From a virus (lineage: Duplodnaviria; Heunggongvirae; Uroviricota; Caudoviricetes), in IMG/VR virus record IMGVR_UViG_2645727555_000018, positions 1-18,152 of that record: a stretch of DNA of 18,152 nt; one strand, given 5' to 3'. The notes under the pieces were generated by a model. That model was not told the DNA's origin. It worked only from the letters and a program-made list of their open reading frames with translations, and ran no database searches. A program made the translations under genes and the position numbers. This document shows, one piece after another, positions 1-17,090 of this stretch (position 1 is the first letter of the stretch; each line of letters starts with the position of its first letter).

Positions 1-104
1 CATATAACCACCTGAAAGACAATGACATTGCCTGTTTTTATAACGGTAATTGCAGACCATGACAAGCCGCAGCCGTCAGGCTGCCTACTCGAAATCGCCC
101 ATAT

Positions 105-479: not shown

Positions 480-509
480 GATGGTTTCCTTATTAAGTTG
501 CTTCAGTGA

Positions 510-552
510 AATCATTTTCACAAATCAGATAAGGCAGAAAACAAATTGTTAT
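510..552 (-). promoter_or_regulatory. promoter/operator module: dyad GAAAACAAATTGTT (536-550) plus extended -10 TGTGAAAAT
   Basis: Same dyad recurs at least 9 times in the window. Here it sits where a -35 would be, just downstream of the terminator at 561-588 and upstream of gene 105..479. Confidence 0.4.
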
Positions 553-560
553 CGGGCATA

Positions 561-588
561 ATAAAATGGCGCGGTTTGCGCGCCATTT
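561..588 (-). terminator. intrinsic terminator after gene 597..923
   Basis: Stem AATGGCGCG/CGCGCCATT (565-587) with loop GTTTG, followed on the minus strand by UUUUAU (561-566 plus-strand A-run). Confidence 0.6.
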
Positions 589-596
589 AAAGAGGA

Positions 597-923
597 TTAA
601 GCGAATACGCTTTCAGGGATTAAGGTGTCGGCAGGAATGCCAGAGGTAATGCGCAGACCGTACTGGCCAATCCAGGTGGTGCTGGTGTTCAGGCTGGAGG
701 CGAATACGGTGTTAACCATATTCATCATGGTTTCAAACACCTCTTCATCAACCTGGCGGAAGTAGTTCTCGATTTTCAGCAGCAGCGGGTCAGTTGCATC
801 GAGAATGGACTGGTATTGAGTCGCGTACTCGCCGCCGGAGGCATCACCTTTACGCACGATCGTACTGGCCTGGACTTCGGCACCAGTTTCGGTGTTGTAC
901 GTAACAACGGTGATTTTTGCCAC
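597..923 (-). CDS. hypothetical protein; probably the 3' part of a longer gene split at an A6 tract (see 961..993)
   Basis: GTG start at 923 with GAAGGTAAG SD. The reading frame stays open upstream to 989 and encodes protein-like sequence (KKLTVDVYYASETAEGKN) that resembles the downstream sequence. Confidence 0.5.
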   Translation of the reverse strand: MAKITVVTYNTETGAEVQASTIVRKGDASGGEYATQYQSILDATDPLLLKIENYFRQVDEEVFETMMNMVNTVFASSLNTSTTWIGQYGLRITSGIPADTLIPESVFA

Positions 924-960
924 ATTCTTACCTTCGGCGGTTTCAGAGGCATAGTAAACA

Positions 961-993
961 TCAACTGTCAGTTTTTTCGCGTTTAACGGTCAT
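961..993 (-). CDS. 10-codon ORF (MTVKREKTDS) with strong SD; likely the true 5' end of gene 597..923 joined by a +1 frame change at the A6 run
   Basis: GGAGAG 8 nt upstream of ATG(993). The A6 run (plus-strand T6 at 972-977) lies exactly at the junction between the two frames. Confidence 0.35.
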   Translation of the reverse strand: MTVKREKTDS

Positions 994-1021
994 TTCACTC
1001 TCCGTAGTGTATTGGTTATTT

Positions 1022-1058
1022 TTATATTCTATGATCGTAAGTATGTACTTACAATACA
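1022..1058 (-). promoter_or_regulatory. sigma70-like promoter (TTGTAA, 17 bp, TAGAAT) with palindrome GTAAGTA-TG-TACTTAC (1037-1052) in the spacer
   Basis: Read on the minus strand: TTGTAA GTACATACTTACGATCA TAGAAT, about 25 nt upstream of the SD for ATG(993). Confidence 0.35.
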
Positions 1059-1084
1059 GAAAAGCCCCGTAAGGATGGCGGGGC
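1056..1084 (-). terminator. intrinsic terminator after gene 1120..1431
   Basis: Stem GCCCCG/CGGGGC (1064-1069 / 1079-1084) followed on the minus strand by CUUUUCUG. Confidence 0.6.
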
Positions 1085-1119
1085 TGTCGTACTGTCGACT
1101 AATTACCACTTGCACATTA

Positions 1120-1431
1120 TCAGGCTATTGCCATCACTGATGCTCTCTGAATTTCTTGCTGGGCCACGCGGTTAACTTCCATCAAAGCCAGTTCGAGCTG
1201 ATGTTCCGGCCACATTCTTTGAAATGCCATCCAGCCTTTTCCACGCTGGCGACGAACATTCATTACATAACGAGTAAAGGTGTTTTTATCGAAAGACACC
1301 GCTGTTTCACGGAACAGACGAATAGAGGTTCCATTGGCAACGATGTCCAGCAAAGTTAATTGAGCAACCAGCGCAGGCTTCTCTTTTCTCTTCTGGTCTT
1401 TGTCCAGACCAAGAACCAATGATTTTTTCAT
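1120..1431 (-). CDS. hypothetical small basic protein (103 aa); ORF runs to 1473 but the SD-backed ATG is at 1431
   Basis: GGAG 5 nt upstream of ATG(1431). The 14 upstream codons are simply the translated promoter motif. Lys/Arg-rich N-terminal region. A terminator follows the stop. Confidence 0.55.
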   Translation of the reverse strand: MKKSLVLGLDKDQKRKEKPALVAQLTLLDIVANGTSIRLFRETAVSFDKNTFTRYVMNVRRQRGKGWMAFQRMWPEHQLELALMEVNRVAQQEIQRASVMAIA

Positions 1432-1478
1432 CACAACTCCGTAAACAACTTGTTTTCTCAATGGCGTAAACAATACCA
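1432..1478 (-). promoter_or_regulatory. promoter/operator module (dyad AAACAAGTTGTTT immediately upstream of SD)
   Basis: Minus strand reads CCATTGAGAAAACAAGTTGTTTACGGAGTTGTGATG; same module family as 1915..1970, 5147..5232, 16991..17040 and 17699..17755. Confidence 0.4.
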
Positions 1479-1548
1479 GTAAGAAAACGGCTACAAAGCA
1501 TAATGATCAGGCGCATGAGCGATATGCAGGTTCTTCCCTGCGGCTATA

Positions 1549-1575
1549 GAGAAATTAAGCCAGCAATGCTGGCTT
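1549..1575 (-). terminator. intrinsic terminator after gene 1585..1914
   Basis: Stem AAGCCAG/CTGGCTT with 5-nt loop (1557-1575), followed on the minus strand by AAUUUCUC. Confidence 0.45.
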
Positions 1576-1584
1576 TGGTTGGGA

Positions 1585-1914
1585 TTACGCGAATACCTCA
1601 AGAAACTCCTGAACGTCCCAATGCTGGACGAGGTGAAGATAGACCTTAGAAATCACGTCATTTTCGCTATCGCATGTGAAGTAGTACTTCTGGCTGCGGT
1701 TGTATGTGTCCACACAAAATTCGCTCATATCCATAAAGTCAGCATCTTCACCCATGTCGCAAATCATCAAAGCAGGTGCGTCATCACGAGTCATCAGCTC
1801 CAGCACCCATCTTGAATTAATCAGAGTGGAAGACCAACCTTCCAGCTCATAGAACTGGTCAAATTCTTTTTGAGTCAATTTCTTGATTTGGTTGATGTCG
1901 ATATTTGCAAACAT
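1585..1914 (-). CDS. hypothetical acidic protein (109 aa); ORF runs to 1935 but the SD-backed ATG is at 1914
   Basis: AAGGA 7 nt upstream of ATG(1914). The first 7 ORF codons are the translated promoter dyad. Confidence 0.55.
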   Translation of the reverse strand: MFANIDINQIKKLTQKEFDQFYELEGWSSTLINSRWVLELMTRDDAPALMICDMGEDADFMDMSEFCVDTYNRSQKYYFTCDSENDVISKVYLHLVQHWDVQEFLEVFA

Positions 1915-1970
1915 AAAGGAATCCTTAAACAACATGTTTTCTTGATGGTGTTATTATCGCAATAACACAC
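1915..1970 (-). promoter_or_regulatory. promoter/operator module: extended -10 TGCGATAAT followed by dyad AAACATGTTGTTT, then SD
   Basis: Minus strand reads TTGCGATAATAACACCATCAAGAAAACATGTTGTTTAAGGA. Almost the same string precedes the methyltransferase gene at 16991..17040. Confidence 0.45.
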
Positions 1971-2277
1971 AGGCGAAAAAGGATTTTATTCCGGTGAATG
2001 TGGTTTTGGCAGTGAGTTTTCAGGTTCAGTACCGAGTACACTTTTTACATTATTCTGATTTAGTGGCCGAAAGTGGCTGGTGGGCAGAATAATCCTCTCC
2101 CCGAAAACCTACTGAAATCGATTGTGACCCGTTGGCTGTCTGGCACAATTACGCTGTAGCTGGCATTCAGAGGGAATCCAGCGGTAAGCAAGTCCGCCTG
2201 CACGTGAGCGCCTCTCTTCTTCCCGCACATTACAGGTGGGTAGCCGCAACTCTCCCTCTCGCTATACCGGTACGCCA

Positions 2278-2424
2278 CCGTTCCTGAACCGGCATCGAGC
2301 CTTTTCCCGAAATCCACACAGGCAACTCGACCGTTTCCCTGAAAACCTCCAGCCGTTCCCCGAAGGCAACCCAGCCGTTTCTGTAGCGGGATGCAGCCTT
2401 TTCCCTGTATGGACCGAAGGCTGA
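2278..2424. repeat. array of six imperfect ~22-bp tandem direct repeats (consensus CCGTTYCCYGAA-N7-8-CAG); iteron- or centromere-like
   Basis: Units start at 2278, 2300, 2331, 2353, 2375 and 2397. Three are exactly 22 bp. The period is not a multiple of 3, so the overlapping ORF 2060..2566 is unlikely to be coding. Confidence 0.55.
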
Positions 2425-2460
2425 CCGTAGGGGTGTTACGGGGGATGGAATCAGGAGTTG

Positions 2461-2494
2461 AATAAATACGAAAAAGGAGGCGACACCCCTCCTT
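2461..2494 (-). terminator. intrinsic terminator at the 3' end of the G-poor noncoding segment
   Basis: Stem AAGGAGG/CCTCCTT (2474-2480 / 2488-2494) with 7-nt loop, followed on the minus strand by UUUCGUAUUUAUU. Confidence 0.5.
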
Positions 2495-3335
2495 CCCTCT
2501 CCACTTATACATACCTGGCTTCTTCGCTATACATGTTGTGTTTTCTTCGTGTTTTATCTGTCTCAACCTCTCTATAGGCGTTAATGCTCACTCCTTCCAG
2601 AACGTTCTATACGGCGACTATTTCTGTTGGTGAATTGGGTGTGTTGTTTTCTCTGTCGGTGTATGTGGTTTCGTTAGTTTTGCGGTGGTTCTTCTATGGG
2701 GTGTTCTCGTCGTTTTGGTGATTGTTCTTCTCCGTGTATGGAGTAATGGCAGGTGGGCGAATCCTTTCGTTATTGTGTTTGAGTTGTTTGTCTGGAGTGT
2801 GAAGGGCTTTTGTAGTTATTCGTGTATTGGGTAATGGCGTTTCCCGTGATTGTTCTGTTTCGTGTCTTTTGGGATTGAGAGAATCCTTGCGGTAACAGGC
2901 TTCGTTGGGGTTTCAGTGGTTCAGGTGTTTCTTCGCTGTTTGGGTAATGGCGTGTCGTGGGTATCGCGCGTATGAATATTTTCGGATTGCCTGTGAAAGT
3001 TAGGTTGGTTGTCCGGTAGCCTGGGGAGAAGAGGTGGGTCTTTTCGGTAGCCTGCCATAAAGAGGTTGGTTGTTTTGGGGAATGGCATGTGTGTTATTTA
3101 GTTGTTTTGTTATAGCTGAAAATAAGTTGTTTATATAGTTATGTAACGCAATGGGAGTGATTTTGAGCGTGTGTTTTTGTTGGTAGTGTGTTGGGTCGTC
3201 TGTGGTGAAAATTGGACGCTGTGGCGCTGTCTGCTGCGTAGAATTACGGGTATAAGAAGTGATGTGTGAATACGTCAATTTTTTAGACCAAATCGGGTGA
3301 AAGCGTTGACGTTTCGTTGATCTGTTATTTAGTTG
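2495..3335 (-). ncRNA. candidate long noncoding transcript, C/A-rich and G-poor on the minus strand; function unknown
   Basis: No convincing ORF in any frame. Plus strand is extremely G+T rich (for 2641-2700: G20 T30 C7 A3). Bounded by a degenerate promoter motif at 3336-3370 and the terminator at 2461-2494. Contains internal repeats GGGTAATGGCG (2744, 2830, 2943, 3081) and CGGTAGCCTG (3016, 3045). Confidence 0.25.
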
Positions 3336-3370
3336 TTTTCTTATTGGTATAAACAACGTTAACCTATTGA
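3336..3370 (-). promoter_or_regulatory. degenerate copy of the promoter module (TTGTTTTCTTATTGG half-dyad)
   Basis: Matches the right half of the module (CCAATAAGAAAACAA on the minus strand) but has lost the second dyad arm and has no SD or ORF behind it. Confidence 0.3.
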
Positions 3371-3485
3371 TATTTAAAGGTGTGATTGCAGGTATGGAAG
3401 AAGAGTAGTGGCGATCAACGGATTCTTATAGAAAAGAATCAAATTGTGACCGCCATTATCAACTGATTGATTAAGCTAATTACAC

Positions 3486-4715
3486 TCAAACATCCCCGTT
3501 CTTAATCCACTGCCTGACTTGCTCGTCTTGTGCGACTTCTTTCTCATGTTTGGCAATATACAAGTCTGGCAATAGGGGTGGAGCGAATTCAGGCTCTGTC
3601 GCACGCCACTTTTCATATGCGTCACGCATGGATTTCTCAACATTCCAATGCTCCAACTCTTGGTATTCAATCGGCCAGTTATCCTGCAATCTCTTCACTG
3701 CATTAGCCAGGTCGTATCGGAAGTAAGGATTAAGACCAATGAAATTACCAGCCAGCATGTCATCAACCTCCTTCACTCTGGCAATCTTAGAAAACTTACC
3801 AATAGCAATGTTGAGGTCCCAATCTGACACGAACAACAAAAGTGCTGCAAATGCCAGAAACTTAGCTTCCCCGTATGCTCTGTCGCTAACCGTTTTTGTC
3901 TGAAACTCAATGTAATTGCCCATCACAAAACTAGTAAGCTTACAGGTCTTACTTATCTCGTCCTCCAAATGCGATGGATCGAGAATTGTGCGGTCACGAT
4001 TATTGTTTATGTGTTCTAAGATTACAGCAATGTCTCTATGTGAGACTGAAATTTCACGCAATTGCTGGAGAGTCTTGATGTGAACTCTTAGCACCTCTTT
4101 GTCAATCGCACGCTTCCAAGAAAAACCAGGCACAGTAACCTGAATGGGCGCGAAAGGTAGAATATCAGGAGTTGTCCATGCTAGATATGCATCACGTAAC
4201 CCACTAATATAATAAAGCCAGTCTAAATGCTCGCTTTCTAACCATATTTCAAATGTGGAATCCTTTCGCTTATTGAAGAACCATTCCCTCATCTGCCACA
4301 TTTTTTCTTGAGTAAATATCCCTTCCTGTATGCCGGCACAGACCAGCTTTCGTATTACCTGCGAATACTTTGTTCGATCTTTTGTGAATGAGACAAGGTG
4401 CTGCTTCACCTCAGATGTTAGTCTATCTCCATAGAAATCACATGATGGATGATGGCCTTGACCATCTTCACCGGTAAATCTGAAATGCGCCTTCTTGTGA
4501 TAGCCACCATTCCTAGTGGCTCTAACGAACGAACCACCTCCAACTTTGCAAATGGGGCAGATGATATCGTCACGGGCAATAGCATGAACCGAGCTGTCAT
4601 CTAAATTCTTTAGCGCCAAGTACTGCTCAGGATCGACTTCTTTTTGTAACGATTTTGAAAAAGCGGTATCAGTCATTCCAAGCTCCGAGCAAGGGGTTAT
4701 TTGTTCAATTATCAT
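3486..4715 (-). CDS. hypothetical 396-409 aa protein with N-terminal Cys/His zinc-ribbon-like motif; AT-rich cargo gene
   Basis: Long ORF. Motif CPICK...(29 aa)...HHPSCDF. ATG at 4676 has a GGAG SD, ATG at 4715 has none. GC content visibly lower than neighbours. None of the shared promoter modules upstream. Confidence 0.6.
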   Translation of the reverse strand: MIIEQITPCSELGMTDTAFSKSLQKEVDPEQYLALKNLDDSSVHAIARDDIICPICKVGGGSFVRATRNGGYHKKAHFRFTGEDGQGHHPSCDFYGDRLTSEVKQHLVSFTKDRTKYSQVIRKLVCAGIQEGIFTQEKMWQMREWFFNKRKDSTFEIWLESEHLDWLYYISGLRDAYLAWTTPDILPFAPIQVTVPGFSWKRAIDKEVLRVHIKTLQQLREISVSHRDIAVILEHINNNRDRTILDPSHLEDEISKTCKLTSFVMGNYIEFQTKTVSDRAYGEAKFLAFAALLLFVSDWDLNIAIGKFSKIARVKEVDDMLAGNFIGLNPYFRYDLANAVKRLQDNWPIEYQELEHWNVEKSMRDAYEKWRATEPEFAPPLLPDLYIAKHEKEVAQDEQVRQWIKNGDV

Positions 4716-4846
4716 TCGGAATTATTTACTGTCTCGCCCAGTTTCACGTCATTTTATTCCCTAGTCTAGCTTTTCTAGGGTATACAGCTTATTACAAGCT
4801 CCTCATTATTAACTGTTTCCGTAACTCATTGATCCGCTTATACACT

Positions 4847-5146
4847 CTACCAACACCAGCACTCAAGCCCTTCAACGATCGGCGCACCACAATCAAAATG
4901 TACAGAGTCAAAGCCTACATCAAGTACTTTCTGAATGTTAGCAATCGCGCCTTCGGATATACCATATCGACGCAAGTCGTCTTTCCAGACATCATCCTGT
5001 AACCCGGCGTGGACAATACAACCGCCATCAATTTGTGAAACCCAATCCAGCTCATTGCTTGCGATCATGAATCGGCGAGCATCTTCCTCTGATGTATGAG
5101 ATGAACTGATCAATGCCACCTGGTAGGCTTGGGTAATGTTCAACAT
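4847..5146 (-). CDS. hypothetical protein (about 100 aa)
   Basis: GGAG 9 nt upstream of ATG(5146); dual-dyad promoter module immediately upstream. Confidence 0.5.
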   Translation of the reverse strand: MLNITQAYQVALISSSHTSEEDARRFMIASNELDWVSQIDGGCIVHAGLQDDVWKDDLRRYGISEGAIANIQKVLDVGFDSVHFDCGAPIVEGLECWCW

Positions 5147-5232
5147 TTCAACCACTCCGAAACAATTTGTTTTCTTATGTGGCTTATTATCTCAATCAAC
5201 AAAAGGTAGAAAACAAATTGTTTTAGGGCTTG
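5147..5232 (-). promoter_or_regulatory. dual-dyad promoter module: dyad 1 (5209-5224), extended -10 TGAGATAAT, dyad 2 (5158-5173), then SD
   Basis: Minus strand reads CCCTAAAACAATTTGTTTTCTACCTTTTGTTGATTGAGATAATAAGCCACATAAGAAAACAAATTGTTTCGGAG. It aligns almost base-for-base with 14040..14115. Confidence 0.45.
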
Positions 5233-5254
5233 TGTAAATCAGGAGGGATTGTGT

Positions 5255-5288
5255 CTATATGAAAATGCCCAGCGTGTTGCCGGGCATT
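5255..5288 (-). terminator. metG intrinsic terminator
   Basis: Imperfect stem AATGCCCAGC/GCCGGGCATT followed on the minus strand by UUUUCAUAU, 20 nt past the metG stop. Confidence 0.5.
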
Positions 5289-5307
5289 GCGAACAGAGGT
5301 TGCTTAA

Positions 5308-7341
5308 TTACTTAACCTGGTGGCCAGGTTTAGCACCAGCATCCGGGCTTAACAGGAAGATATCTTTCCCGCCGGGGCCAGCAGCCATCACCATGCCTTC
5401 AGAGATACCGAAGCGCATTTTACGCGGAGCCAGGTTAGCCACCATAATGGTGTGACGACCAATCAGTGCCTGTGGATCTGGATAAGCGGAACGGATGCCT
5501 GAGAAGACATTACGCTTTTCACCACCGAGATCCAGCGTCAGGCGAAGCAGTTTGTCAGAACCTTCGACAAACTCCGCGTTTTCAATCAGCGCTACACGCA
5601 GGTCAACTTTGGCGAAGTCGTCAAAGGTGATGGTTTCCTGAATCGGGTCGTCAGCCAGTGGGCCAGTTACCGGTGCAGCTGTGGCTTTCACTTCTTCTTT
5701 GGATGCTTCCACCAGTGCTTCCACCTGTTTCATATCGATACGGTTATACAGTGCCTTGAACGGATTCACTTTATGGCCCAGCAGCGGTTGCTGGATACCA
5801 TCCCAGGTCAGTTCTGTATTCAGGAATGCTTCTGCACGTTCAGTCAGTTTCGGCAGTACCGGTTTCAGGTACGTCATCAGCACGCGGAACAGGTTAATGC
5901 CCATAGAGCAAATCGCCTGCAGATCGGCATCGCGTCCTTCCTGCTTCGCCACCACCCACGGAGCCTGTTCATCGACATAGCGGTTAGCCAGATCAGCCAG
6001 CGCCATGATTTCACGAATCGCTTTACCAAATTCGCGGCTTTCCCATGCTTCACCAATCACTTCAGCGGCATCAGTAAAGGTTTTGTACAGTTGCGGGTCA
6101 GCCAGTTCGCCTGCCAGCACACCGTCAAAACGCTTATTGATAAAGCCCGCGTTACGGGACGCCAGATTCACCACTTTGTTCACGATATCGGCATTCACGC
6201 GCTGAACGAAATCCTCCAGGTTGAGATCGATATCATCAATGCGCGAAGAGAGTTTCGCAGTGTAGTAGTAACGCAGGCTGTCAGCGTCAAAATGATTCAG
6301 CCAGGTGCTGGCTTTAATAAAGGTGCCGCGAGACTTGGACATCTTCGCACCGTTCACCGTCACATAGCCATGAACAAATAGGTTGGTCGGCTTGCGGAAG
6401 TTGCTGCCTTCCAGCATGGCAGGCCAGAACAGGCTGTGGAAGTAAACGATATCTTTACCGATGAAGTGGTACAGCTCGGCGGTGGAGTCTTTCTTCCAGT
6501 ATTCGTCGAAGCTGGTAGTGTCGCCGCGTTTGTCGCACAGATTCTTGAAGGAACCCATGTAGCCAATCGGTGCGTCCAGCCAGACGTAGAAATATTTGCC
6601 CGGTGCGTTCGGAATTTCAAAACCGAAGTACGGCGCATCGCGGGAGATATCCCACTGTTGCAGGCCAGATTCAAACCACTCCTGCATTTTGTTTGCCACC
6701 TGCTCCTGCAACGCACCGCTGCGGGTCCATGCCTGCAACATTTCGCTGAAAGAGGGCAGATCAAAGAAGAAGTGTTCGGAATCACGCATTACCGGCGTAG
6801 CACCAGAAACTACCGATTTCGGCTCGATCAGTTCAGTCGGGCTGTAAGTCGCGCCGCAGACTTCACAGTTATCGCCGTATTGATCTGGCGCTTTACATTT
6901 AGGACAGGTGCCTTTTACAAAACGGTCCGGCAGGAACATGCCTTTTTCCGGGTCGTACAACTGAGAGATAGTGCGGTTTTTAATAAAACCGTTCTCTTTC
7001 AGGCGAGTATAGATAAGCTCAGACAACTGACGGTTCTCTTCGCTGTGCGTCGAGTGATAGTTGTCATAGCTGATGTTAAAGCCTGCGAAATCAGTCTGGT
7101 GTTCCTGACTCATTTCGCCAATCATCTGCTCCGGTGTGATACCAAGTTGCTGTGCTTTCAGCATGATCGGCGTACCGTGGGCATCGTCGGCACAGATGAA
7201 ATTAACCTCGTGGCCGCGCATTCGCTGGTAACGAACCCAGACATCAGCCTGGATGTGCTCCAGCATATGGCCGAGGTGGATTGAGCCGTTAGCGTACGGC
7301 AGCGCGCACGTCACCAGAATTTTCTTCGCGACTTGGGTCAT
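5308..7341 (-). CDS. metG: methionine--tRNA ligase (677 aa)
   Basis: N-terminus [29 protein letters not shown] with the class I HIGH-type motif (HLGH), the KMSKS motif (GAKMSKSRG) and a zinc-knuckle CPKC...CEVC. ORF extends to 7470 but the conserved start is ATG(7341). Confidence 0.97.
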
Positions 7342-7498
7342 AGTAGGCATTACTTCTTTGTAGTGAAAAGGGGCTTGATAGTAACAAAATGGCCTTATGT
7401 CTGCCATGTGATAACAGCATTTCTCATAAATGATTAAATGTCGCAGCTGGAGTACACTACAAGGCGACAATTGCGCAAATTAAAATAAAGGAGACGGG
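7342..7498. promoter_or_regulatory. divergent metG / apbC promoter region
   Basis: 157-bp AT-rich intergenic spacer between the two divergent start codons; AAGGAG SD precedes the apbC ATG. Confidence 0.5.
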
Positions 7499-8599
7499 AT
7501 GAGCGAGTCCAAATCGCCGGATGCCCTGAGAGCAATGGTAGCCGGTACGCTGGCTAATTTTCAGCACCCAACCCTGAAACACAACCTGACTACGCTTAAA
7601 GCGTTACACCATGTTGCGTTGATGGATGACACACTGCATGTCGAACTAATCATGCCTTTCGTGTGGAATAAGCCTTTTGAAGACCTGAAAGAGCAATGTA
7701 GTGGTGATCTGCTCCGTATCACTGGCGCAAAGGCTATTGACTGGAAGCTGTCGTACAACATTGCCACGCTTAAGCGCGTCAAAAACCAACCAGGCATTAA
7801 TGGTGTTAAGAATATTATCGCCGTAAGCTCAGGCAAGGGCGGTGTAGGCAAATCGTCCACAGCAGTAAACTTGGCACTGGCTTTGGCTGCTGAAGGTGCG
7901 AAAGTTGGTATTTTGGATGCCGATATCTATGGTCCATCAATTCCAACCATGCTGGGCGCGGAAAACCAACGTCCAACCTCACCTGACGGTACTCACATGG
8001 CACCTATCATGTCTCATGGCCTGGCAACCAACTCTATTGGTTATCTGGTCACCGACGACAATGCAATGGTGTGGCGTGGACCGATGGCCAGCAAGGCGCT
8101 GATGCAGATGTTGCAGGAAACTCTATGGCCTGATCTGGACTATCTCGTTCTCGATATGCCGCCGGGCACTGGTGATATTCAGTTGACGCTGGCGCAGAAC
8201 ATTCCTGTAACTGGTGCGGTTGTGGTAACTACGCCGCAAGACATCGCGCTGATCGATGCGAAGAAAGGCATTGTGATGTTCGAAAAAGTCGAAGTGCCGG
8301 TACTAGGTATCGTCGAAAACATGAGTGTGCATATTTGCAGTAACTGCGATCATCACGAGCCAATTTTTGGCACCGGTGGCGCACAGAAACTGGCCGAGAA
8401 ATACAACACGCAGTTGTTAGGCCAAATGCCACTTCATATCTCTCTTCGTGAAGATCTGGATAACGGAACACCAACCGTTATTAGTCGTCCAGATAGCGAA
8501 TTTACGGCTATTTATCGTGACCTCGCAGATCGCGTTGCTGCCCAAATGTATTGGCAAGGTGAAGTAATACCTGGCGAAATCGCATTCCGCGCAGTGTGA
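7499..8599 (+). CDS. apbC: iron-sulfur cluster carrier ATPase ApbC/Mrp
   Basis: P-loop GKGGVGKS, CSNC motif, C-terminal ...GEVIPGEIAFRAV; full-length 366-aa ORF. Confidence 0.95.
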   Translation: MSESKSPDALRAMVAGTLANFQHPTLKHNLTTLKALHHVALMDDTLHVELIMPFVWNKPFEDLKEQCSGDLLRITGAKAIDWKLSYNIATLKRVKNQPGINGVKNIIAVSSGKGGVGKSSTAVNLALALAAEGAKVGILDADIYGPSIPTMLGAENQRPTSPDGTHMAPIMSHGLATNSIGYLVTDDNAMVWRGPMASKALMQMLQETLWPDLDYLVLDMPPGTGDIQLTLAQNIPVTGAVVVTTPQDIALIDAKKGIVMFEKVEVPVLGIVENMSVHICSNCDHHEPIFGTGGAQKLAEKYNTQLLGQMPLHISLREDLDNGTPTVISRPDSEFTAIYRDLADRVAAQMYWQGEVIPGEIAFRAV

Positions 8600-8624
8600 T
8601 AAAAAGGTGGTGCAATGCACCACC
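8599..8624 (-). terminator. intrinsic terminator downstream of the umuD'-like gene, in the apbC 3' spacer
   Basis: Stem GGTGGTG/CACCACC (8606-8624) with loop CAATG, followed on the minus strand by UUUUUAUC. Confidence 0.55.
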
Positions 8625-8636
8625 TAAACAGTTCTC

Positions 8637-9026
8637 CTACATCACAGGACAATCATCAAACTCGCCACTTCTTGCGTCGTTGATAATGTGAGTGATCACA
8701 CCAAACACGGCATTGCTGCCCGTGCATCCATCATCATCCTTTGGCAATGCTTCCTTCTTACCAGTTCTTAAATCCTCCAGATGCTGACGTGGATACTTCC
8801 GGTATCTTTTTACGCGATATTCCCCATCCAGAGCACATACAAGAAGAGATCCATCAACAGGAGTCAGTGAGGAATCGACCACCAGCAATGCACCCTGCAA
8901 TATTCCCTCACGATGATGACTATCAGCCGCCCTCATGAAGTAGGTCGCTGAAGGATGTCTAATTATCTGCTGATCAAGAGAAATACGGCTCTCAGCATAA
9001 TCCGCCGCAGGAGAAGGGAAGCCCAT
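8637..9026 (-). CDS. UmuD'-like S24 peptidase-family protein encoded without the N-terminal arm (humD-like)
   Basis: Begins MGFPSPAADY, i.e. at the position of the UmuD Cys24-Gly25 autocleavage site. Ser (AADSH) and Lys (EYRVKRY) of the catalytic dyad are present. C-terminal VFGVITHII matches UmuD VFGVVIHVV. No umuC-like gene is adjacent. Confidence 0.85.
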   Translation of the reverse strand: MGFPSPAADYAESRISLDQQIIRHPSATYFMRAADSHHREGILQGALLVVDSSLTPVDGSLLVCALDGEYRVKRYRKYPRQHLEDLRTGKKEALPKDDDGCTGSNAVFGVITHIINDARSGEFDDCPVM

Positions 9027-9042
9027 AATACTCGCCTCTTAA

Positions 9043-9062
9043 TACTGTATATGCATACAGTA
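9043..9062. promoter_or_regulatory. LexA (SOS) box TACTGTATATGCATACAGTA
   Basis: Perfect CTGT-N8-ACAG palindrome 17 nt upstream of the umuD'-like ATG, next to an AAGAGG SD. Confidence 0.8.
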
Positions 9063-9116
9063 TATGTTGAAGCTATATATTTTTGAACTCTATCTCTTAA
9101 AAAAGATGTTAATAAG

Positions 9117-9359
9117 ATGCTAACTATTGAAAGGCATAAATATATACAATTCCAACAAACGTTATTTTTAACAAATTTTTACTTCCCATTGACTTTCCCA
9201 GACTCCTTGTCTGAACTAATGTCCGCGGAAACCACTTTTTCCTTTACGAGTTATCCACAAAGTTATGCACTTGCACATAGTCTCTATAAATCCTATCTTA
9301 ATTCGCAAGACACTGATGTTGCGGTATTGTGGGTACATTTGGTTAAAAACGGACATTAA
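9117..9359 (+). CDS. questionable small ORF (80 aa) in an AT-rich spacer
   Basis: Only plus-strand ORF outside apbC not overlapped by a minus-strand gene; followed directly by a terminator. No convincing SD, atypical composition. Confidence 0.2.
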   Translation: MLTIERHKYIQFQQTLFLTNFYFPLTFPDSLSELMSAETTFSFTSYPQSYALAHSLYKSYLNSQDTDVAVLWVHLVKNGH

Positions 9360-9360
9360 A

Positions 9361-9389
9361 AAAGCCCAGTTGACTAGGCTGGGCTTTTT
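9361..9389 (+). terminator. intrinsic terminator (plus strand)
   Basis: Stem AGCCCAG/CTGGGCT (9363-9369 / 9379-9385), A-run upstream and UUUUU downstream. Confidence 0.55.
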
Positions 9390-9390
9390 A

Positions 9391-9417
9391 AAAGGAAACA
9401 GAGTTTGCGCCTCTGTT
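9391..9417 (-). terminator. intrinsic terminator (minus strand), back-to-back with 9361..9389
   Basis: Stem AACAGAG/CTCTGTT (9397-9403 / 9411-9417) with loop TTTGCGC; the minus-strand reading is followed by UCCUUUUAAAAA. Confidence 0.4.
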
Positions 9418-9424
9418 CCTGAGC

Positions 9425-9619
9425 CATAAGTATCTGGCGACTGAGCTAAGATTAACCGAATGTACTGGATTCATCAAGAAACGTTGAGCCGTCATGCTAG
9501 GTAATAATGACCATTTACCAAACATCGTTGTTCTCAAAGAAGATTTAAGTCCAGGTTTTTGGTGACTCTAAAACCTTACCTTAACTCGAAATCGTGCCGT
9601 AAGTATCTGGCGACTACAG
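9425..9619. repeat. direct repeats in noncoding DNA: TAAGTATCTGGCGACT (9427-9442 and 9599-9614) and AAATCGTGCCG (9589-9599 and 9708-9718)
   Basis: Exact 16-bp and 11-bp direct repeats in an ORF-free stretch between two terminators. Confidence 0.5.
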
Positions 9620-9785
9620 ATATTGCAACTGCAAAGGCAAGCTCAAAGGTATTTGCAGCTAGGTGCGATAAAACTAAGTGAGGCCTATAGTGCTTAACTT
9701 ACTTTTCAAAATCGTGCCGCCTATGTTCGCAATCATCGAAGCGATCATTGAGTACGTCAACCAGCGCCCATAATGCTAGTTGTTA

Positions 9786-9816
9786 CCGGCCCCATCCAAA
9801 TGGGGCCATTTTATTG
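9786..9816 (+). terminator. intrinsic terminator-like hairpin
   Basis: Stem GGCCCCA/TGGGGCC (9788-9794 / 9801-9807) followed by AUUUUAUU on the plus strand. Confidence 0.45.
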
Positions 9817-9822
9817 TATTGA

Positions 9823-10494
9823 CTACATACTTTCTGATCTAATTGAGTTGTTCACTGCTCTGGCAATTTTCTCCCGCAATTGCTGCGCTCCGTGGTACTG
9901 AACCGCAATATCCCGCAACTCGTTCACCAGTTCTCTAATCTGGTGATCTTTAAGCTCATTATTTGGGTGATGGGTAACAACTCTGGTTAATTCACCCTTG
10001 TCTTTTGCTCTTACGTATGCAGCTCTTGTGCATTCGACCCATGTATTACCGCCTACATTAACTTCGTAGATTAGGCTGGACTTATCTGTCAATTCGGAAC
10101 AAATACGGGCCGTGGTCTGGCAACTAGAGCATTCGCAGTTATCGCGGAAACCGTGGTCTACTGGCTTCGGTTTCACATCATCAACTTTTTCTACCCTATT
10201 GGAATTTAAATACTTCGAAGCCTTGCTATGCCAATAGCTGGTTTTAGGATCTTGTCCATCCATCAAACGCCAGGCTTCAGCGATTAACTCATAACTAGTG
10301 ACTGTAGCTTCCTGCGCATCACCAATAAGTCGTGTAATCTCTCTTTCAAGCCGACCGCCTAACTCCGTTTTAGTGCAATGTTCTGACCAATCGCCAGCCT
10401 CAAGAAGCGCGAGAATGCTTAAAATATCGTCCAATAGAACGGTAGTATTATCGACTTCCTTCTGAAACTCACCGGCTACTGATTTATGCATCAT
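9823..10494 (-). CDS. hypothetical protein (223 aa), last gene of the coupled operon
   Basis: Its ATG overlaps the stop of the upstream gene (ATGATGA); long ORF. Confidence 0.6.
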   Translation of the reverse strand: MMHKSVAGEFQKEVDNTTVLLDDILSILALLEAGDWSEHCTKTELGGRLEREITRLIGDAQEATVTSYELIAEAWRLMDGQDPKTSYWHSKASKYLNSNRVEKVDDVKPKPVDHGFRDNCECSSCQTTARICSELTDKSSLIYEVNVGGNTWVECTRAAYVRAKDKGELTRVVTHHPNNELKDHQIRELVNELRDIAVQYHGAQQLREKIARAVNNSIRSESM

Positions 10495-11144
10495 TCGTCA
10501 TCCTCATCCGAGTCATCCTCATCACAGGATGAGAGTAGTGGGTTAGTCATTCGCCCTACTTGAGTGGCGTAGCCACGCCGACAGAGATTGCGCAGCACAC
10601 TGTATATTTCGAACATCTCGGTTCGTTCATCGCCAACATCAAGCTCAGATGCTATAGCGTGGCATTCAGTCGCGAGAGCCGATATTTTCTGAAATAACTC
10701 TGCATTATTCACTGTTCGACTCCTGCGGCGTTCTGGTAGTGGCATCCAGTGTGTGACATTGCTAATCAGACCATATTCATTAGTTTGAGGATGGTTGCCG
10801 TTATCGTCTCCGTATTTAAGACTCTCCATAAAGCCATAATGCCTATTACCATTAACGCTCACAAAGCCGTAATAAGCAGGTATAACGCCGATCTCACACG
10901 TAACCAGTAAAGGAAAACTAGTTCTCCAATTTAGCTCGCCAATTACAGGCATTCGCTCACTACAGCTTATCCAACCATCCTTAGATGCGGCTGTATTGGC
11001 ATAGGCCTTACGGTGCTTCTGTAGCTCTGCTGCAATCGCTCTCACGACTTCAACTGGTGCCCTTGCAGCAAACTCAATGTTGGTGATCAGCTCATTAAGA
11101 TATTTCTCGCTTGGGTAGCATTTCTTATTGTTAACGGTGGTCAT
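10491..11144 (-). CDS. hypothetical phage protein, DUF551-like, with acidic C-terminal tail
   Basis: Motifs GWISCSERMP and THWMPLPE resemble DUF551; C-terminus CDEDDSDEDDE; TAATG overlap with the upstream gene. Confidence 0.55.
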   Translation of the reverse strand: MTTVNNKKCYPSEKYLNELITNIEFAARAPVEVVRAIAAELQKHRKAYANTAASKDGWISCSERMPVIGELNWRTSFPLLVTCEIGVIPAYYGFVSVNGNRHYGFMESLKYGDDNGNHPQTNEYGLISNVTHWMPLPERRRSRTVNNAELFQKISALATECHAIASELDVGDERTEMFEIYSVLRNLCRRGYATQVGRMTNPLLSSCDEDDSDEDDE

Positions 11145-11329
11145 TAGGCAGCTCTCTCAACAACAAGCAATTCGTCGTAGTCATAATCAGTTTCGGAACC
11201 ATCCGTACCGAACAGAGTCACTTTGTCATTTTCCATCCAAAAAGATTTAACCGCACATTGTTGACCTTTAGATGTTATGAGCACATCACCAGGGATTACG
11301 TCTTCAGCGCGAACCTCTAGTGTTCTCAT
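11144..11329 (-). CDS. hypothetical small protein (61 aa)
   Basis: ATGA overlap upstream and TAATG overlap downstream place it inside the coupled operon. Confidence 0.5.
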   Translation of the reverse strand: MRTLEVRAEDVIPGDVLITSKGQQCAVKSFWMENDKVTLFGTDGSETDYDYDELLVVERAA

Positions 11330-11856
11330 CGTGCTGCCCCCTCTTTGGTGAAAATGCCTGCTGCAATGCTGTTTATGATGCTGTCAGTGCATGGAGTAGA
11401 AAGCTGGGCATCTCCAGCAATTTTCATGACCTCAACATCCGCATATCGAATACCGAGGTGTATCAGACCGGCTATACCTGACTTAAGTCGAACATTTTCC
11501 ATAAACAGATCTTTTTCCCGCTGTTTAGCGGCTTCCAACTCCATCGACAATTTTTCCAACTGCTCTTTATGCTTCTTGTATTCCTGATATGCGTGCCAGG
11601 ACTGACCTTTGCGCACACTATCAGTAATATCAGTAATCTGTTCTGGTGTTAGCGTGGTCAGTGGCTGTGCTGGGAAAATCAGCACTTTCCCGGAATCCCA
11701 ATCAAAACCAGCGTGAATTGACTGAACCTCAACTGATGGTGTTGAACCGATGCGACCAGGCGAATGAACAACGATCGTTACATCCATATCGCGACGATGG
11801 CTGTGGTTGTTGGACAAAATACGATTCACCAACTCAGAAAATTTGGAGAATTTCAT
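11326..11856 (-). CDS. hypothetical protein (176 aa); ORF begins at TTG 11868 but the SD-backed ATG is at 11856
   Basis: GAGG 8 nt upstream of ATG(11856), which lies 8 nt after the stop of the upstream gene. Confidence 0.55.
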   Translation of the reverse strand: MKFSKFSELVNRILSNNHSHRRDMDVTIVVHSPGRIGSTPSVEVQSIHAGFDWDSGKVLIFPAQPLTTLTPEQITDITDSVRKGQSWHAYQEYKKHKEQLEKLSMELEAAKQREKDLFMENVRLKSGIAGLIHLGIRYADVEVMKIAGDAQLSTPCTDSIINSIAAGIFTKEGAAR

Positions 11857-11864
11857 GCGGAGCC

Positions 11865-12275
11865 TCAATATGCAAAATAGACCGTTGCCACGCCGTTATA
11901 GTGATCAAACGATACGGCGTTTACTTCATAGCTGGCAGGGAGCTTCGATCCGAGAACGTATCCGGGCCACGTTTTCCATGGAATTTCTCTGCGCTCACTA
12001 TCGCCATATACCGTACATCCCAGAGAGCCTACAGCTTCATTAGAACGCGTGCCGCACGTTATGAATCCCAGATTTTGCTTACTGCTCTTAATGGTGATTG
12101 GGTGAACGCTGGCTGATGCATTAGCAGCACGCTGTGCCTGTTGGTTTGTGATATTCGCAGAGTTCGCAGCAGCTACAGCAGCCGTAGTCGCGGCGGTAGA
12201 GGCTACAATAGCTGCTGAAGCATGCACTTGTTGGATATTCACCAACAATGCCGCGACAAAAATCATCTTCTTCAC
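11865..12275 (-). CDS. hypothetical secreted/periplasmic protein with N-terminal signal peptide
   Basis: GTG start with AGGAG SD. N-terminus MKKMIFVAALLVNIQQVHASAA is a typical Sec signal with AxA cleavage site. Mature part is Ala/Thr/Ser-rich. Confidence 0.6.
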   Translation of the reverse strand: MKKMIFVAALLVNIQQVHASAAIVASTAATTAAVAAANSANITNQQAQRAANASASVHPITIKSSKQNLGFITCGTRSNEAVGSLGCTVYGDSERREIPWKTWPGYVLGSKLPASYEVNAVSFDHYNGVATVYFAY

Positions 12276-12859
12276 TTGTCAGCTCCTTTGCGAATCTGTT
12301 CCGCCCATTCTTCAAGGGATTTCTCCGCATATTCACCGGACAGGCCATCAATCGGGTGCGGTTCATTAGCCAACTCTTCTTTCGCTGACAGAATCATGCG
12401 TGTAACGTCGAAAACTTCACGTAAAGACTTATTGATAAATCCGTGGTTGAAAGCAGCAGCAAGACGGCTTGCGGTATAGTTAACCCCCTCGTTGCGAGTC
12501 TCCGCACGTACTTCAGCCAGAAAAGCATCGGTGGCTGGAGTCTCCGTCAATTCGCTAACCCAATTATCTCCGTGTTCCTCGGCACACATCGCATCGAATG
12601 CTCGCTCAGATTCTTTCAGGGCTGCATTCTCCGCCGCTAATGCGTCTCTCTGCGCTCGCAACTTCTCAATTTCGGCAGCCATGTAGTAACCAACCATAGC
12701 GAAAGTGGCGAAAGGGTAGTCAGAATCATCAGGAGATACGGAGGCCATTAGCAGACCATCGTGCATGTTCTGGCTTCCATCAGTGATGGATACCGCATAA
12801 GAATCGCTGGTTTCCCGTTTATACAATACGACGACCGGGTTCTTGATTTTCTCTCTCAT
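12272..12859 (-). CDS. hypothetical protein with central coiled-coil-like segment (possibly Ead/Ea22-like)
   Basis: Heptad-like EIEKLRAQRDALAAENAALKESERA; TAATG overlap with the upstream gene. Confidence 0.55.
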   Translation of the reverse strand: MREKIKNPVVVLYKRETSDSYAVSITDGSQNMHDGLLMASVSPDDSDYPFATFAMVGYYMAAEIEKLRAQRDALAAENAALKESERAFDAMCAEEHGDNWVSELTETPATDAFLAEVRAETRNEGVNYTASRLAAAFNHGFINKSLREVFDVTRMILSAKEELANEPHPIDGLSGEYAEKSLEEWAEQIRKGADK

Positions 12860-13401
12860 TACGATGCCTCTAACTTATCTAACTCTTTCAGCCCTTCACG
12901 TACCGCGTTCACAATGCGTTCCAGATACTGGTATTTCGGGTTTGGTACCGTTGGCCAGTCGGCATACCACGGATCATCACCAAAGAGATTCAGCAGTTTG
13001 TTACCGACGCCGAAACAACAGCAGCTTTCTTTTACGTCATCGGCGTTTTCCGCCTCGTCCCACATTTCACGAGCCAGTACGGCGTCGATTTCTCTCTCTC
13101 TTCGTAACTTTATGATTTCTGACTTCACGAAAAGCAGATTTGCATCGTTGTCATCGTCGACCGTGCTTCGCAGTTGAGAGTCGAAATAGCCGATTAGATA
13201 CTCGTTGCTGACCCGCTTAATGAACGTCTGCACATCATCACCGCCCATAGCAAACCAAGCCGCAGTCCACGCTTTTCCGTAGCAGATGATGGTGATTCTT
13301 CCCTTACCAGGTTCGTAGTTTTCAATCATCACTCGAACCGGATCGAGGCGTTCCAGATCCGTCAGCACAAAGGAAAGAACATCTATTTTTTCGACCTTCA
13401 T
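12859..13401 (-). CDS. hypothetical protein (180 aa)
   Basis: ATGA overlap with the upstream HD-hydrolase gene; long ORF. Confidence 0.55.
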   Translation of the reverse strand: MKVEKIDVLSFVLTDLERLDPVRVMIENYEPGKGRITIICYGKAWTAAWFAMGGDDVQTFIKRVSNEYLIGYFDSQLRSTVDDDNDANLLFVKSEIIKLRREREIDAVLAREMWDEAENADDVKESCCCFGVGNKLLNLFGDDPWYADWPTVPNPKYQYLERIVNAVREGLKELDKLEAS

Positions 13402-14039
13402 GCAGCCTCCAACGCGCTCCAGATCAGCGATTTGTGTTTTTCATAACGTTTGATGTGTACCGGTTTCAGAAGCGCAATACCTTCAGTGACTTTCGCCATT
13501 GCGCTTAATAGCAACGGGTGTTCTATACCTATCCTCTCCATGTACTCGACAACATCAGCGTTGGCACCAATCTCTTTGCCGTGAAAGAGTACGTCCAGCA
13601 TCAGTTCTTTCTCTGCGAGGTAGACAGCTGAAAACTCGGGATCGCGACTCACGATAGAAGAGGTATTGTCGAGCAGGTCAGCCAGCTTGATCATGCGCGT
13701 CTGCATGTCGAGATTTTGCTCCAGCTCCCGGACATTGATGATGAAACGCTGTATTCGATTGCCGTCTTCTGGCCTTGCAATGTTGGTCAGAGCCTGAACC
13801 ATTTCAGCTACGCGCTCACCGAAGTGATCACGAACCATCTCTATGGTTACATGGGTGTCTTCGACCACATCATGCAGAAGCGCCGCGATTTGCATCTCCA
13901 CGGTTCCGTCATGCAATGCAACAATCTCTCGGACAGCAACCGGGTGGTTGATGTAGTCTTCGCCGGTATATTTTCTTTTCTGACCAACGCCACCATGAGC
14001 GCCAGCGGCGAACATATGAGCTTCGGAAATACTAGACAT
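13398..14039 (-). CDS. HD-domain hydrolase of the RelA/SpoT (p)ppGpp-hydrolase type (small alarmone hydrolase-like)
   Basis: GEDYINHPVAV...AALLHDVVEDT...FGERVAEMV closely mirrors the SpoT/Rel hydrolase signature (GEPYI.HP.AV / LHDV.EDT). No synthetase domain; 213 aa. Confidence 0.75.
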   Translation of the reverse strand: MSSISEAHMFAAGAHGGVGQKRKYTGEDYINHPVAVREIVALHDGTVEMQIAALLHDVVEDTHVTIEMVRDHFGERVAEMVQALTNIARPEDGNRIQRFIINVRELEQNLDMQTRMIKLADLLDNTSSIVSRDPEFSAVYLAEKELMLDVLFHGKEIGANADVVEYMERIGIEHPLLLSAMAKVTEGIALLKPVHIKRYEKHKSLIWSALEAA

Positions 14040-14115
14040 TCTTAACTCCGTTGTTTTCTAGTTGTGGTTATTTTCACAAATAAGAAAAGGTAGAAAACAA
14101 TTTATTTAAGGCCAC
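14040..14115 (-). promoter_or_regulatory. dual-dyad promoter module for the 8-gene operon
   Basis: Minus strand reads GCCTTAAATAAATTGTTTTCTACCTTTTCTTATTTGTGAAAATAACCACAACTAGAAAACAACGGAG. Aligns with 5147..5232, including the TTGTTTTCTACCTTTT block and a TGnGAAAAT extended -10. Confidence 0.45.
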
Positions 14116-14158
14116 AACTTATGGCCTTTATTTATTCATGCCGAAGGATTTGTAGCGT

Positions 14159-14539
14159 CTAATTGCCGGATAAAATGGGGTGAGGTGCTTGCCAGTAGGC
14201 TCCACCGGTCCATGTGAACCCCATGCGAATAAGAGTGTTTATTGCGGCTTTGGTAGACTCCGATTCGACACTGGCTTTTCGAAACTCTTGAACCTCTTTC
14301 GCCAACTTGTATGTAATTGTGCAGGGGACGATTGCAGCCCAGCCTTTCTCATGACTGTTAATGACCATCTGGATGTGACCATCCAGAATAGGTTGATTAG
14401 GCATGTTATTGAAAATGTCTGCCTGTTTTTGAATGTGAAGAAAAAGCCTTGCCAGCTCCATTTGCTCACTACGAGACAAGGGATTATCAAGAGGGCTTTT
14501 TGCAAAAGCGGCTATACGCTGTGCGTCAATGCCAAACAT
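14159..14539 (-). CDS. hypothetical protein (126 aa)
   Basis: TGATG overlap with the upstream gene. Confidence 0.55.
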   Translation of the reverse strand: MFGIDAQRIAAFAKSPLDNPLSRSEQMELARLFLHIQKQADIFNNMPNQPILDGHIQMVINSHEKGWAAIVPCTITYKLAKEVQEFRKASVESESTKAAINTLIRMGFTWTGGAYWQAPHPILSGN

Positions 14540-15243: not shown

Positions 15244-15304
15244 GTGTTTTTCTCTTATCGTTTAGTAACTACATTCTTACACAAACTAAGTAAGTATTTA
15301 CCTA

Positions 15305-16990: not shown

Positions 16991-17040
16991 AATTACACCA
17001 TTAAATAATTTGTTTTCTGATTGGTGTAATTATCGCAAAC
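16991..17040 (-). promoter_or_regulatory. promoter/operator module for the methyltransferase operon: TGCGATAAT extended -10 plus dyad
   Basis: Minus strand reads TTGCGATAATTACACCAATCAGAAAACAAATTATTTAATGGTGTAATT then ATG. A 10-bp inverted repeat AATTACACCA/TGGTGTAATT (16991-17000 / 17022-17031) brackets the dyad and abuts the start codon. Confidence 0.45.
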
Positions 17041-17090
17041 TTGAAAAGGCATAAAAGCTGCATTCATAGGCGTTACAGCAGATTTAAGGC

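Follow-up and report, generated by a model that had tools for sequence, protein, structure and literature searches.

Phage-plasmids are temperate phages that are kept as plasmids. Auxiliary aminoacyl-tRNA synthetases also occur on mobile elements, as with plasmid-borne ileS2/mupA, which gives mupirocin resistance. The described systems closest to the locus examined here are pECOH89 (HG530657), termed an SSU5-like phage-like plasmid in the literature, p09EL50 and pLF82, which is phage Cyrano (OV696614); Cyrano is reported to make virions, to be inducible with ciprofloxacin and to be present at 5.5 copies per chromosome (PMC9928086). A discussion of the metG/apbC pair on these plasmids was not found in the literature searched.

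Replicon identity and layout

The window, the whole stretch of 18,152 nt that was analysed, is very probably the variable accessory region of an Escherichia SSU5-like phage-plasmid (pECOH89/p09EL50/pLF82-Cyrano type) with a captured metG-apbC pair. Positions 93-18064 match ~110-kb circular E. coli phage-plasmids of the pECOH89/pLF82-Cyrano type at 97-99% identity, and pECOH89, p09EL50 and Cyrano share this nucleotide identity over the interval, a like gene order that includes metG, apbC and humD, and an identical dyad operator. NZ_CP027358.1 matches 96% of the window with 99.1% identity; at least 80% of it is covered, at 97-99%, by 29 E. coli records, and the matches listed are all circular plasmids of ~110 kb. 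Among phages, Cyrano, PhiR41_1 and CMS-2020a each account for 73-79% of the window (Cyrano, 78% at 96.7%), and the cargo is partly unlike that of Cyrano, differing at 3462-4848 and 11526-14065. The backbone is matched at 254 places, 2 of them on chromosomes, and occurs in 244 records; metG was counted on plasmids at 220 places, such that ~90% of the E. coli plasmids of this family (~220/~244) keep the pair. Phage structural genes and a plasmid replication/partition module lie outside the 18-kb window; the literature places them on the matching complete replicons.

Salmonella phage SSU5 (JQ965645) and pHCM2-type plasmids have backbone genes and dyad/extended -10 modules in common with the window at 65-87% nt. 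The SSU5 backbone genes in the window (the HD gene, the DUF4942 methylase-like gene, the 409-aa gene and the small genes) are 65-87% identical with their order kept, and SSU5 lacks metG, apbC, humD and the ea22 block. The main features of the window are as follows.

1-92: right end of an IS200/IS605-like element (~1.86 kb); start codon of its 138-aa transposase (minus strand) at nt 1-3
105-5155, minus: left block, with small genes (phrog_7971, 2473, 5125 and 7645), a 409-aa gene (phrog_12525) and a DUF5983 gene (4847-5155)
5160-5172 and 5211-5223, minus: promoter/operator module of two dyads that flank the extended -10 TGAGATAAT
5262-5290, minus: putative terminator beyond the metG stop (hairpin followed by T-run), read from the sequence and absent from the automatic terminator scan
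5308-7341, minus: metG, methionyl-tRNA synthetase (MetRS), 677 aa, intact (Pfam tRNA-synt_1g, E = 4.6e-166; Anticodon_3; tRNA_bind)
7342-7498: divergent promoter region between metG and apbC, chromosomal type, without dyad
7499-8599, plus: apbC (mrp), Fe-S cluster carrier ATPase, 366 aa, intact, divergent (Pfam PF10609, E = 4.6e-102)
8605-8625, minus: hairpin terminator between convergent apbC and humD
8637-9026, minus: humD, UmuD'-like S24 peptidase of phage P1 type (phrog_811, E = 2.7e-54; Pfam Peptidase_S24)
9043-9062: perfect LexA (SOS) box taCTGTatatgcataCAGta upstream of humD, read from the sequence
9117-9359: 80-aa ORF (phrog_28987)
9356-9392: bidirectional hairpin
9678-9773, plus: 31-aa hydrophobic ORF
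9788-9807, plus: terminator
9823-12859, minus: lambdoid/P1-like ea22/eaa-type genes, cargo and not SSU5 backbone
12859-17698, minus: right backbone, with 180-aa, HD-domain (13398-14039), 126-aa, 234-aa, DUF4942 methylase-like (15305-16990) and 188-aa genes
14095, 17003 and 17717: dyads of the right backbone
18065-18152: left end of the IS200/IS605-like element, 97.7% identical to L092 2501-2587

Unlike pECOH89, p09EL50 and Cyrano, the window copy is bracketed by the two ends of this IS200/IS605-like element. The first 92 nt are 100% identical to pMRE600-1 (L092 4269-4360) and do not match the phage-plasmids; at the other end, the IS interrupts a TciA-like gene (L001 CDS 21119-21544). Because the terminal 88-92 nt on each side are IS sequence, a circular extrachromosomal replicon is the presumed rather than the proven carrier of this very copy. 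A tRNA scan of the window was empty and no integrase was found among its annotated genes, as the first-pass annotation had reported; the absence of integrase and att sites is expected for a phage-plasmid, which is extrachromosomal and non-integrating. The cargo is bordered by a promoter module and by its own stop codons, unlike an integrative element. An Rfam search of the whole window (E ≤ 1) returned no match. A chimeric query (K-12 molR flank, Ns and plasmid apbC) for a plasmid integrated at chromosomal metG gave no joined match, with a joining limit of 1,997 nt, shorter than the 2,034-nt gap.

Flanking blocks and borders of the cargo

The dyad AAACAAnTTGTTT (≤2 mismatches) occurs at 9 sites in the window versus 1.64 expected, a number reached in 0 of 200 shuffles. 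All but one (8/9) are intergenic, upstream of minus-strand genes and between a TGnGAtAAT-type extended -10 and the Shine-Dalgarno. Elsewhere, 13 were counted in the homologous SSU5 region, 11 in Cyrano and 1 in 623 kb of chromosomal sequence (80 enterobacterial loci). The flanking blocks are early/accessory operons of one replicon, each opening with an extended -10 promoter overlapped by this palindromic operator. We infer that the dyad is the binding site of a dimeric phage-plasmid repressor, for which the putative Cyrano repressor CYRAN_45 is one candidate. Since the dyads are a family-wide operator, the two blocks belong to one replicon and not to two elements. The left block is homologous to SSU5 at 528-1502 and 2244-4677, and the right backbone is 83-87% identical to SSU5 (nt). 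The left block also contains a ~1.5-kb unannotated stretch (~1940-3485); predicted RNA folding of 2060-2640 (minus strand) did not exceed that of shuffled sequence in stability (z = +1.2), and no tandem repeats were found in 1900-3500.

Homology to SSU5 ends at 4677 and restarts at 12885, and 5233-12885 is lineage-specific cargo in place of ~1.5 kb of SSU5. The module at 5160-5223, which drives the DUF5983 gene, marks the left edge of the cargo and has an SSU5 counterpart at L002 8951-9019 (88.6% identical); between this module and SSU5_100, SSU5 encodes SSU5_103, ydfZ and SSU5_101 instead. The cargo that took the place of these SSU5-type genes consists of the chromosomal pair metG-apbC in divergent orientation, humD of P1 type under SOS control and genes resembling lambdoid ea22. 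No dyad lies between 5233 and 14094: the genes at 9823-12859 lack dyads of their own, and the first module to the right of the cargo is at 14095. The earlier observation that metG/apbC sits between two co-oriented blocks with one regulatory architecture holds, as the pair is intact and dyads with extended -10 promoters are found on both flanks. Its left limit, ~25 bp from the metG terminator, is also sound (the module ends near 5228-5233, with the hairpin ~25-30 bp further on). The right block was said to begin directly after apbC, which is incorrect: humD, the LexA box, the 80-aa ORF and ~440 bp of small ORFs and terminators come first.

The LexA box consensus is CTGT-N8-ACAG, which taCTGTatatgcataCAGta fits. 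The humD locus of phages P1 and P7 is 84-88% identical to that of the window (nt) across humD and the LexA-box region, and the likeness to P1 is confined to this short humD segment. The 80-aa ORF was considered as a fragment of P1 lxr and ruled out, being unrelated to the P1 Lxr protein.

Contrasting evolution of metG and apbC

Homology to the E. coli chromosome is limited to 5307-8595 (onset 5301-5308), so that the hairpin at 5262-5290 lies outside it. The plasmid MetRS has a complete domain set (PF09334, residues 8-397; PF19303, 415-540; PF01588, 581-674), and metG is 98.7% (aa) and 93.7% (nt) identical to that of K-12, with dS of 0.315 and dN/dS of 0.02. In a second sublineage (L088-L091), metG is 96.9% identical to K-12 and reaches 99-100% in some windows, and metG of p2013C-4991 has K-12 states at ~10 consecutive informative sites (gene positions 1653-1830). 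Both sublineages share ~25 plasmid-specific metG differences from K-12 beside K-12-identical tracts. These tracts seem to reflect gene conversion from host chromosomes. Run-length permutation tests, restricted to five plasmid alleles and one E. coli reference, were weak (P = 0.044 for the second sublineage; other alleles not significant). The low dN/dS of metG may have been imported along with the chromosomal tracts. Like ileS2/mupA, plasmid metG is a second copy of an essential synthetase gene, carried by a mobile replicon in addition to the chromosomal copy; unlike ileS2/mupA, its product is 98.7% identical to the host enzyme and nothing points to inhibitor resistance. Neofunctionalization or inhibitor resistance of MetRS is unsupported, as it differs from K-12 at 9 aa, most of which are ancestral enterobacterial states.

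ApbC is a full NUBPL/Mrp ATPase, with the Walker A motif (GKGGVGKS) and CxxC intact here and in all plasmid copies. It is 94.3% (aa) and 81.7% (nt) identical to K-12, with dS of ~1.8, and ~82% identical (nt) to every chromosome compared. Amino acid identity is 81% between plasmid sublineages and 79-94% to the host protein. Substitution ratios indicate that plasmid apbC is under purifying selection (dN/dS of 0.009-0.03 within a lineage and 0.067 between sublineages). The promoter region at 7342-7498 is Escherichia-like in only the first 47 bp beside metG. In a donor search across 80 species loci, chromosomal copies reached at most 88% nt identity over the full segment; apbC by itself reached 82% nt in these loci and 95% aa in a search of 5.8 billion proteins with ApbC.

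The second sublineage has the DUF5983-metG-apbC junction in common with the window (contiguous match, 4856-8592), as well as ApbC-specific residues. A single capture is inferred because this left junction and these residues are common to both sublineages; the pair would have been acquired once, long ago, by illegitimate recombination and trimmed to the stop codon on both sides. After capture, metG seems to have been patched repeatedly by homologous recombination with host chromosomal metG, and apbC has diverged past the reach of recombination under persisting purifying selection. In a bolder reading, possible but slightly less likely than not, plasmid metG evolves in concert with the chromosome of whichever Escherichia hosts it, by repeated conversion, and apbC has escaped to become a plasmid-specific, lysogen-expressed Fe-S carrier paralogue. 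Instead of capture and conversion, metG could derive from Escherichia and apbC with its promoter region from a more distant enterobacterium, consistent with the sharp change in divergence ~47 bp upstream of the metG start and with apbC and most of the spacer being no nearer to Escherichia than to Citrobacter or Salmonella. However, the native divergent layout of the pair is exactly preserved, and homologous replacement is more parsimonious than a second, precise insertion that restored the arrangement of the chromosome; the plasmid-specific metG differences common to both sublineages, together with K-12-identical tracts, fit an old allele overwritten piecemeal. Two donors are therefore unlikely.

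Expression, retention and role of the pair

The pair retains a chromosomal-type divergent promoter of its own, without a dyad, and metG-apbC is thus likely to be active in the plasmid-prophage state, at the copy number of the plasmid. Such expression has been reported for Cyrano apbC (CYRAN_99, 9-fold over prophage background in a lysogen) and would extend to metG (CYRAN_100), which is missing from the published list of lysogen-expressed Cyrano morons (PMC9928086). The most likely role would be that of a moron-type supplement, supplying an extra MetRS and a plasmid-specific Fe-S carrier ATPase to the lysogen or the phage. The cargo could also be neutral hitch-hiking DNA, or chiefly provide a stretch homologous to the host chromosome, with proteins that confer no benefit: no phenotype is known, metG is not among the expressed morons and recombination with the chromosome evidently occurs. 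We consider this improbable, as neither ORF is disrupted in any copy examined, ~90% of the family members in E. coli retain the pair and apbC, reported as transcribed in the lysogen, is beyond rescue by conversion yet keeps its catalytic motifs intact, with dN/dS of 0.009-0.07, across deep plasmid sublineages.

The first-pass annotation had taken the window for an Escherichia chromosomal locus that is normally contiguous backbone. This premise is wrong, as sequence outside the region of chromosomal homology matches phage-plasmids, and in a synteny check none of the K-12 surroundings of the pair (yehI-molR-metG/apbC-yehE-yehDCB) is present. It had left three explanations side by side, among which capture of metG/apbC by a large mobile replicon stands, and two flanking elements or one split element do not. 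A chromosomal pair with related mobile elements on either side, or with one element split around it, would account for the intact genes in native divergent arrangement and for flanks resembling the same kind of element, but can be dismissed because yehI/molR and yehE are missing, chromosomal homology stops at both stop codons, the metG allele is ≤94.8% identical to any of ~5,424 E. coli chromosomal copies versus 97-99.6% to plasmid copies, and all 18 kb are collinear with circular 110-kb plasmids.

A false lead is thereby removed, as nothing is inserted around chromosomal metG. The replicon family is already known. The metG/apbC arrangement has an explanation and is for the most part ordinary; its one modest twist concerns the evolution of the two captured genes. 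This phage-plasmid family is clinically widespread (~4.5% of complete E. coli genomes), with blaCTX-M-15 carried in some members, and shared metG homology could also mediate plasmid-chromosome cointegration. Nearly all Escherichia members of the family keep a second MetRS and a divergent ApbC with contrasting evolutionary modes, which makes the pair a tractable system for studying the retention of housekeeping genes by temperate elements and the recombination of such elements with essential host genes.

Identity of the replicon

From about 88 to 18065, the window is 97-99% identical to circular Escherichia coli plasmids of ~110 kb, the best match being NZ_CP027358.1 (96% coverage, 99.1% identity), and phages Cyrano, PhiR41_1 and CMS-2020a cover 73-79% of it. 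pECOH89 is reported in the literature as an SSU5-like phage-plasmid, and Cyrano (= pLF82) is reported as a ciprofloxacin-inducible, virion-forming plasmid-prophage present at 5.5 copies per chromosome (PMC9928086). These comparisons assign the window sequence to the SSU5-like phage-plasmids, temperate phages kept as plasmids. All 5426 complete E. coli genomes match the window only across 5307-8595 (~88%), and the K-12 neighbours of the metG/apbC pair, yehI/molR and yehE-yehDCB, are all absent from it; the window is therefore not chromosomal backbone, which the first-pass annotation had described as the normal setting of this locus. Its third option, a replicon that had captured metG/apbC, agrees with the near-full plasmid match. 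apbC is the only sizeable gene on the plus strand, and scans of the whole window returned no tRNA and no Rfam family. ORF lists and family scans gave two intact, divergent genes:

5308-7341, minus strand, metG, 677 aa with all MetRS domains
7499-8599, plus strand, apbC, 366 aa

Positions 1-92 and 18065-18152 carry the right and the left end, respectively, of a single ~1.86-kb IS200/IS605-like element, as in pMRE600-1 (locus positions 2501-4360, 138-aa transposase), so that either two direct IS copies bracket the 18-kb stretch or the window represents an entire short-read contig ending in IS repeats. The right copy splits a TciA-like gene. Because the terminal 88-92 nt are IS ends, we infer the replicon carrying exactly this copy from its near-identical relatives.

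In a search of E. coli genomes, the backbone segment 14100-17700 was found at 254 places (244 records, 243 genomes) and plasmid-borne metG at 220, so that about 90% of the family's E. coli members keep the metG/apbC pair. One SSU5-type E. coli plasmid lacks both genes. A chromosomal metG is always present alongside the plasmid copy, which is therefore supplementary. Two of the 254 backbone-matching places are on chromosomes; these could be integrated copies, possibly via metG homology.

Dyad operator and mosaic cargo

The palindrome AAACAAnTTGTTT, a putative operator, occurs at 9 sites with ≤2 mismatches (1.64 expected; 0 of 200 shuffles reached 9), 8 of them intergenic and upstream of minus-strand genes. 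On that strand its place is between an extended -10 (TGnGAtAAT type) and a Shine-Dalgarno sequence, and at some promoters another dyad is found farther upstream (5211-5223 with 5160-5172, for instance). As first proposed, dyads occur on both sides of metG/apbC (left at 539, 1443, 1927, 5160 and 5211; right at 14095, 17003 and 17717), and the blocks share this architecture as neighbouring operons of a single replicon. None lies between 5211 and 14095, and the ea22-type genes have no dyads of their own. At ≤1 mismatch, SSU5 has 13 dyads in its homologous 21 kb and Cyrano has 11, but chromosomal loci of 80 enterobacterial species, 623 kb in all, have just one; the dyad is a hallmark of the SSU5-like family.

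SSU5 homology covers 528-1502, 2244-4677, 12885-14138 and 14289-17389, and the double-dyad module 5160-5228 corresponds to SSU5 locus 8951-9019, so 5233-12885 stands in for ~1.5 kb of SSU5 holding SSU5_103, ydfZ and SSU5_101. The left module stops ~25-30 bp before a hairpin and T-run downstream of metG, close to where the left block had been placed. The right block had been thought to begin directly after apbC; this position is instead occupied by a P1-like humD and its LexA box, then by an 80-aa ORF and by ~440 bp in which small ORFs and terminators lie, and the ea22-type genes come after these. The cargo is itself a mosaic, in which metG-apbC derives from a chromosome and humD, with the LexA box, from P1-like phage-plasmids (84-88% identity), and the third part consists of lambdoid ea22/eaa-type genes. 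Given its P1/P7-derived humD segment, this SSU5-like plasmid carries an SOS-controlled UmuD' homologue taken from another phage-plasmid family. Features to the right of apbC are:

9043-9062, perfect LexA box separating humD from the 80-aa ORF
9423-9442 and 9596-9615, 20-nt direct repeats
9678-9773, plus strand, 31-aa hydrophobic ORF with a good Shine-Dalgarno sequence
9760->9732, antisense promoter-like site
9788-9807, plus strand, terminator 3' of the 31-aa ORF

The layout of 9380-9820 resembles a type I toxin-antitoxin locus; Rfam gave no matches there. In Escherichia fergusonii plasmid NZ_CP079892.1 (locus positions 9084-16249), the place of the ea22-HD-DUF4942 block after humD is taken by a DNA polymerase III theta (hot-like) gene together with a complete type I restriction-modification system. 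The site right of humD is a cargo hotspot.

Two further stretches lie in the left block. About 1.5 kb (~1940-3485, especially 2600-3350) have no annotated gene in matching plasmids, with GC skew of +0.49, AT skew of -0.5, a C/A-rich, almost G-free minus strand, loose direct repeats and ~65% conservation with SSU5; no tandem array, Rfam match or unusual RNA stability was detected. This stretch may act as an origin or in Rho loading (a rut-like tract), or may encode a non-coding RNA. At 597-992, a gene annotated with 396 bp in the reference plasmid has a stop codon within the corresponding span here, and is possibly a pseudogene or has a different start.

Histories and function of metG and apbC

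Window metG is 93.7% identical to K-12 in nucleotides and 98.7% in amino acids (dS 0.315, comparable to 0.278 between E. coli and Escherichia sp. E1V33), and its identity to E. coli chromosomes reaches at most 94.8%. Window apbC has ~82% nucleotide identity to each of E. coli, Citrobacter and Salmonella (dS 1.5-1.9, dN 0.034), and the divergence shift is abrupt, ~47 bp upstream of the metG start. A second sublineage of phage-plasmids in E. coli assemblies has the same DUF5983-metG-apbC left junction and different right-hand cargo, namely genes for a BOF-domain protein, Hok/Gef toxin, cytochrome c peroxidase and cytochrome b562 (GCA_016987495.1 and others). An IS605-type TnpB lies left of its junction. 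Its ApbC is 81% identical to window ApbC and 79% to K-12 (amino acids), and both plasmid proteins have intact catalytic motifs, an N-terminus 3 aa shorter and plasmid-specific residues (WNKPFE, RPDSEF, YRDLADRV, AQMYW and EIAFRA). Compared with K-12, its metG has 96.9% identity overall and 99-100% in some 150-nt windows, and the first sublineage shares ~25 of the 64 differences that separate it from K-12. The four first-sublineage metG alleles have 103 polymorphic sites with many incompatibilities, and p2013C-4991 metG has K-12 states at ~10 consecutive informative sites (gene positions 1653-1830); the conversion analysis used five alleles and one reference, with a permutation P of 0.044 at best. 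These patterns are consistent with one old capture of the pair by a phage-plasmid, after which metG may have been repeatedly gene-converted from host chromosomes and apbC would have diverged unassisted. Separate acquisition of metG and apbC, in two events, remains a rival to this single capture.

Both genes look functional: the within-lineage dN/dS of apbC is 0.009-0.03 and that between sublineages 0.067, and plasmid MetRS has 9 residue differences from K-12, most of them ancestral states. The 157-bp metG-apbC spacer has no dyad, and expression of the two genes is accordingly predicted to be independent of the phage-plasmid regulon. The apbC homologue CYRAN_99, which carries the annotation septum site-determining protein, is listed among the LF82 genes expressed 9-fold above prophage background, and metG is absent from the same list (PMC9928086). 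Our literature search found no paper discussing the metG/apbC cargo of these plasmids.

The replicon family, these sequences and their annotations are already public, and a known element explains the flanked metG/apbC arrangement; the contrast between metG and apbC is a modest new observation. We infer that the pair is moron-type cargo, supplying an extra MetRS and a plasmid-specific Fe-S carrier, of putative benefit.
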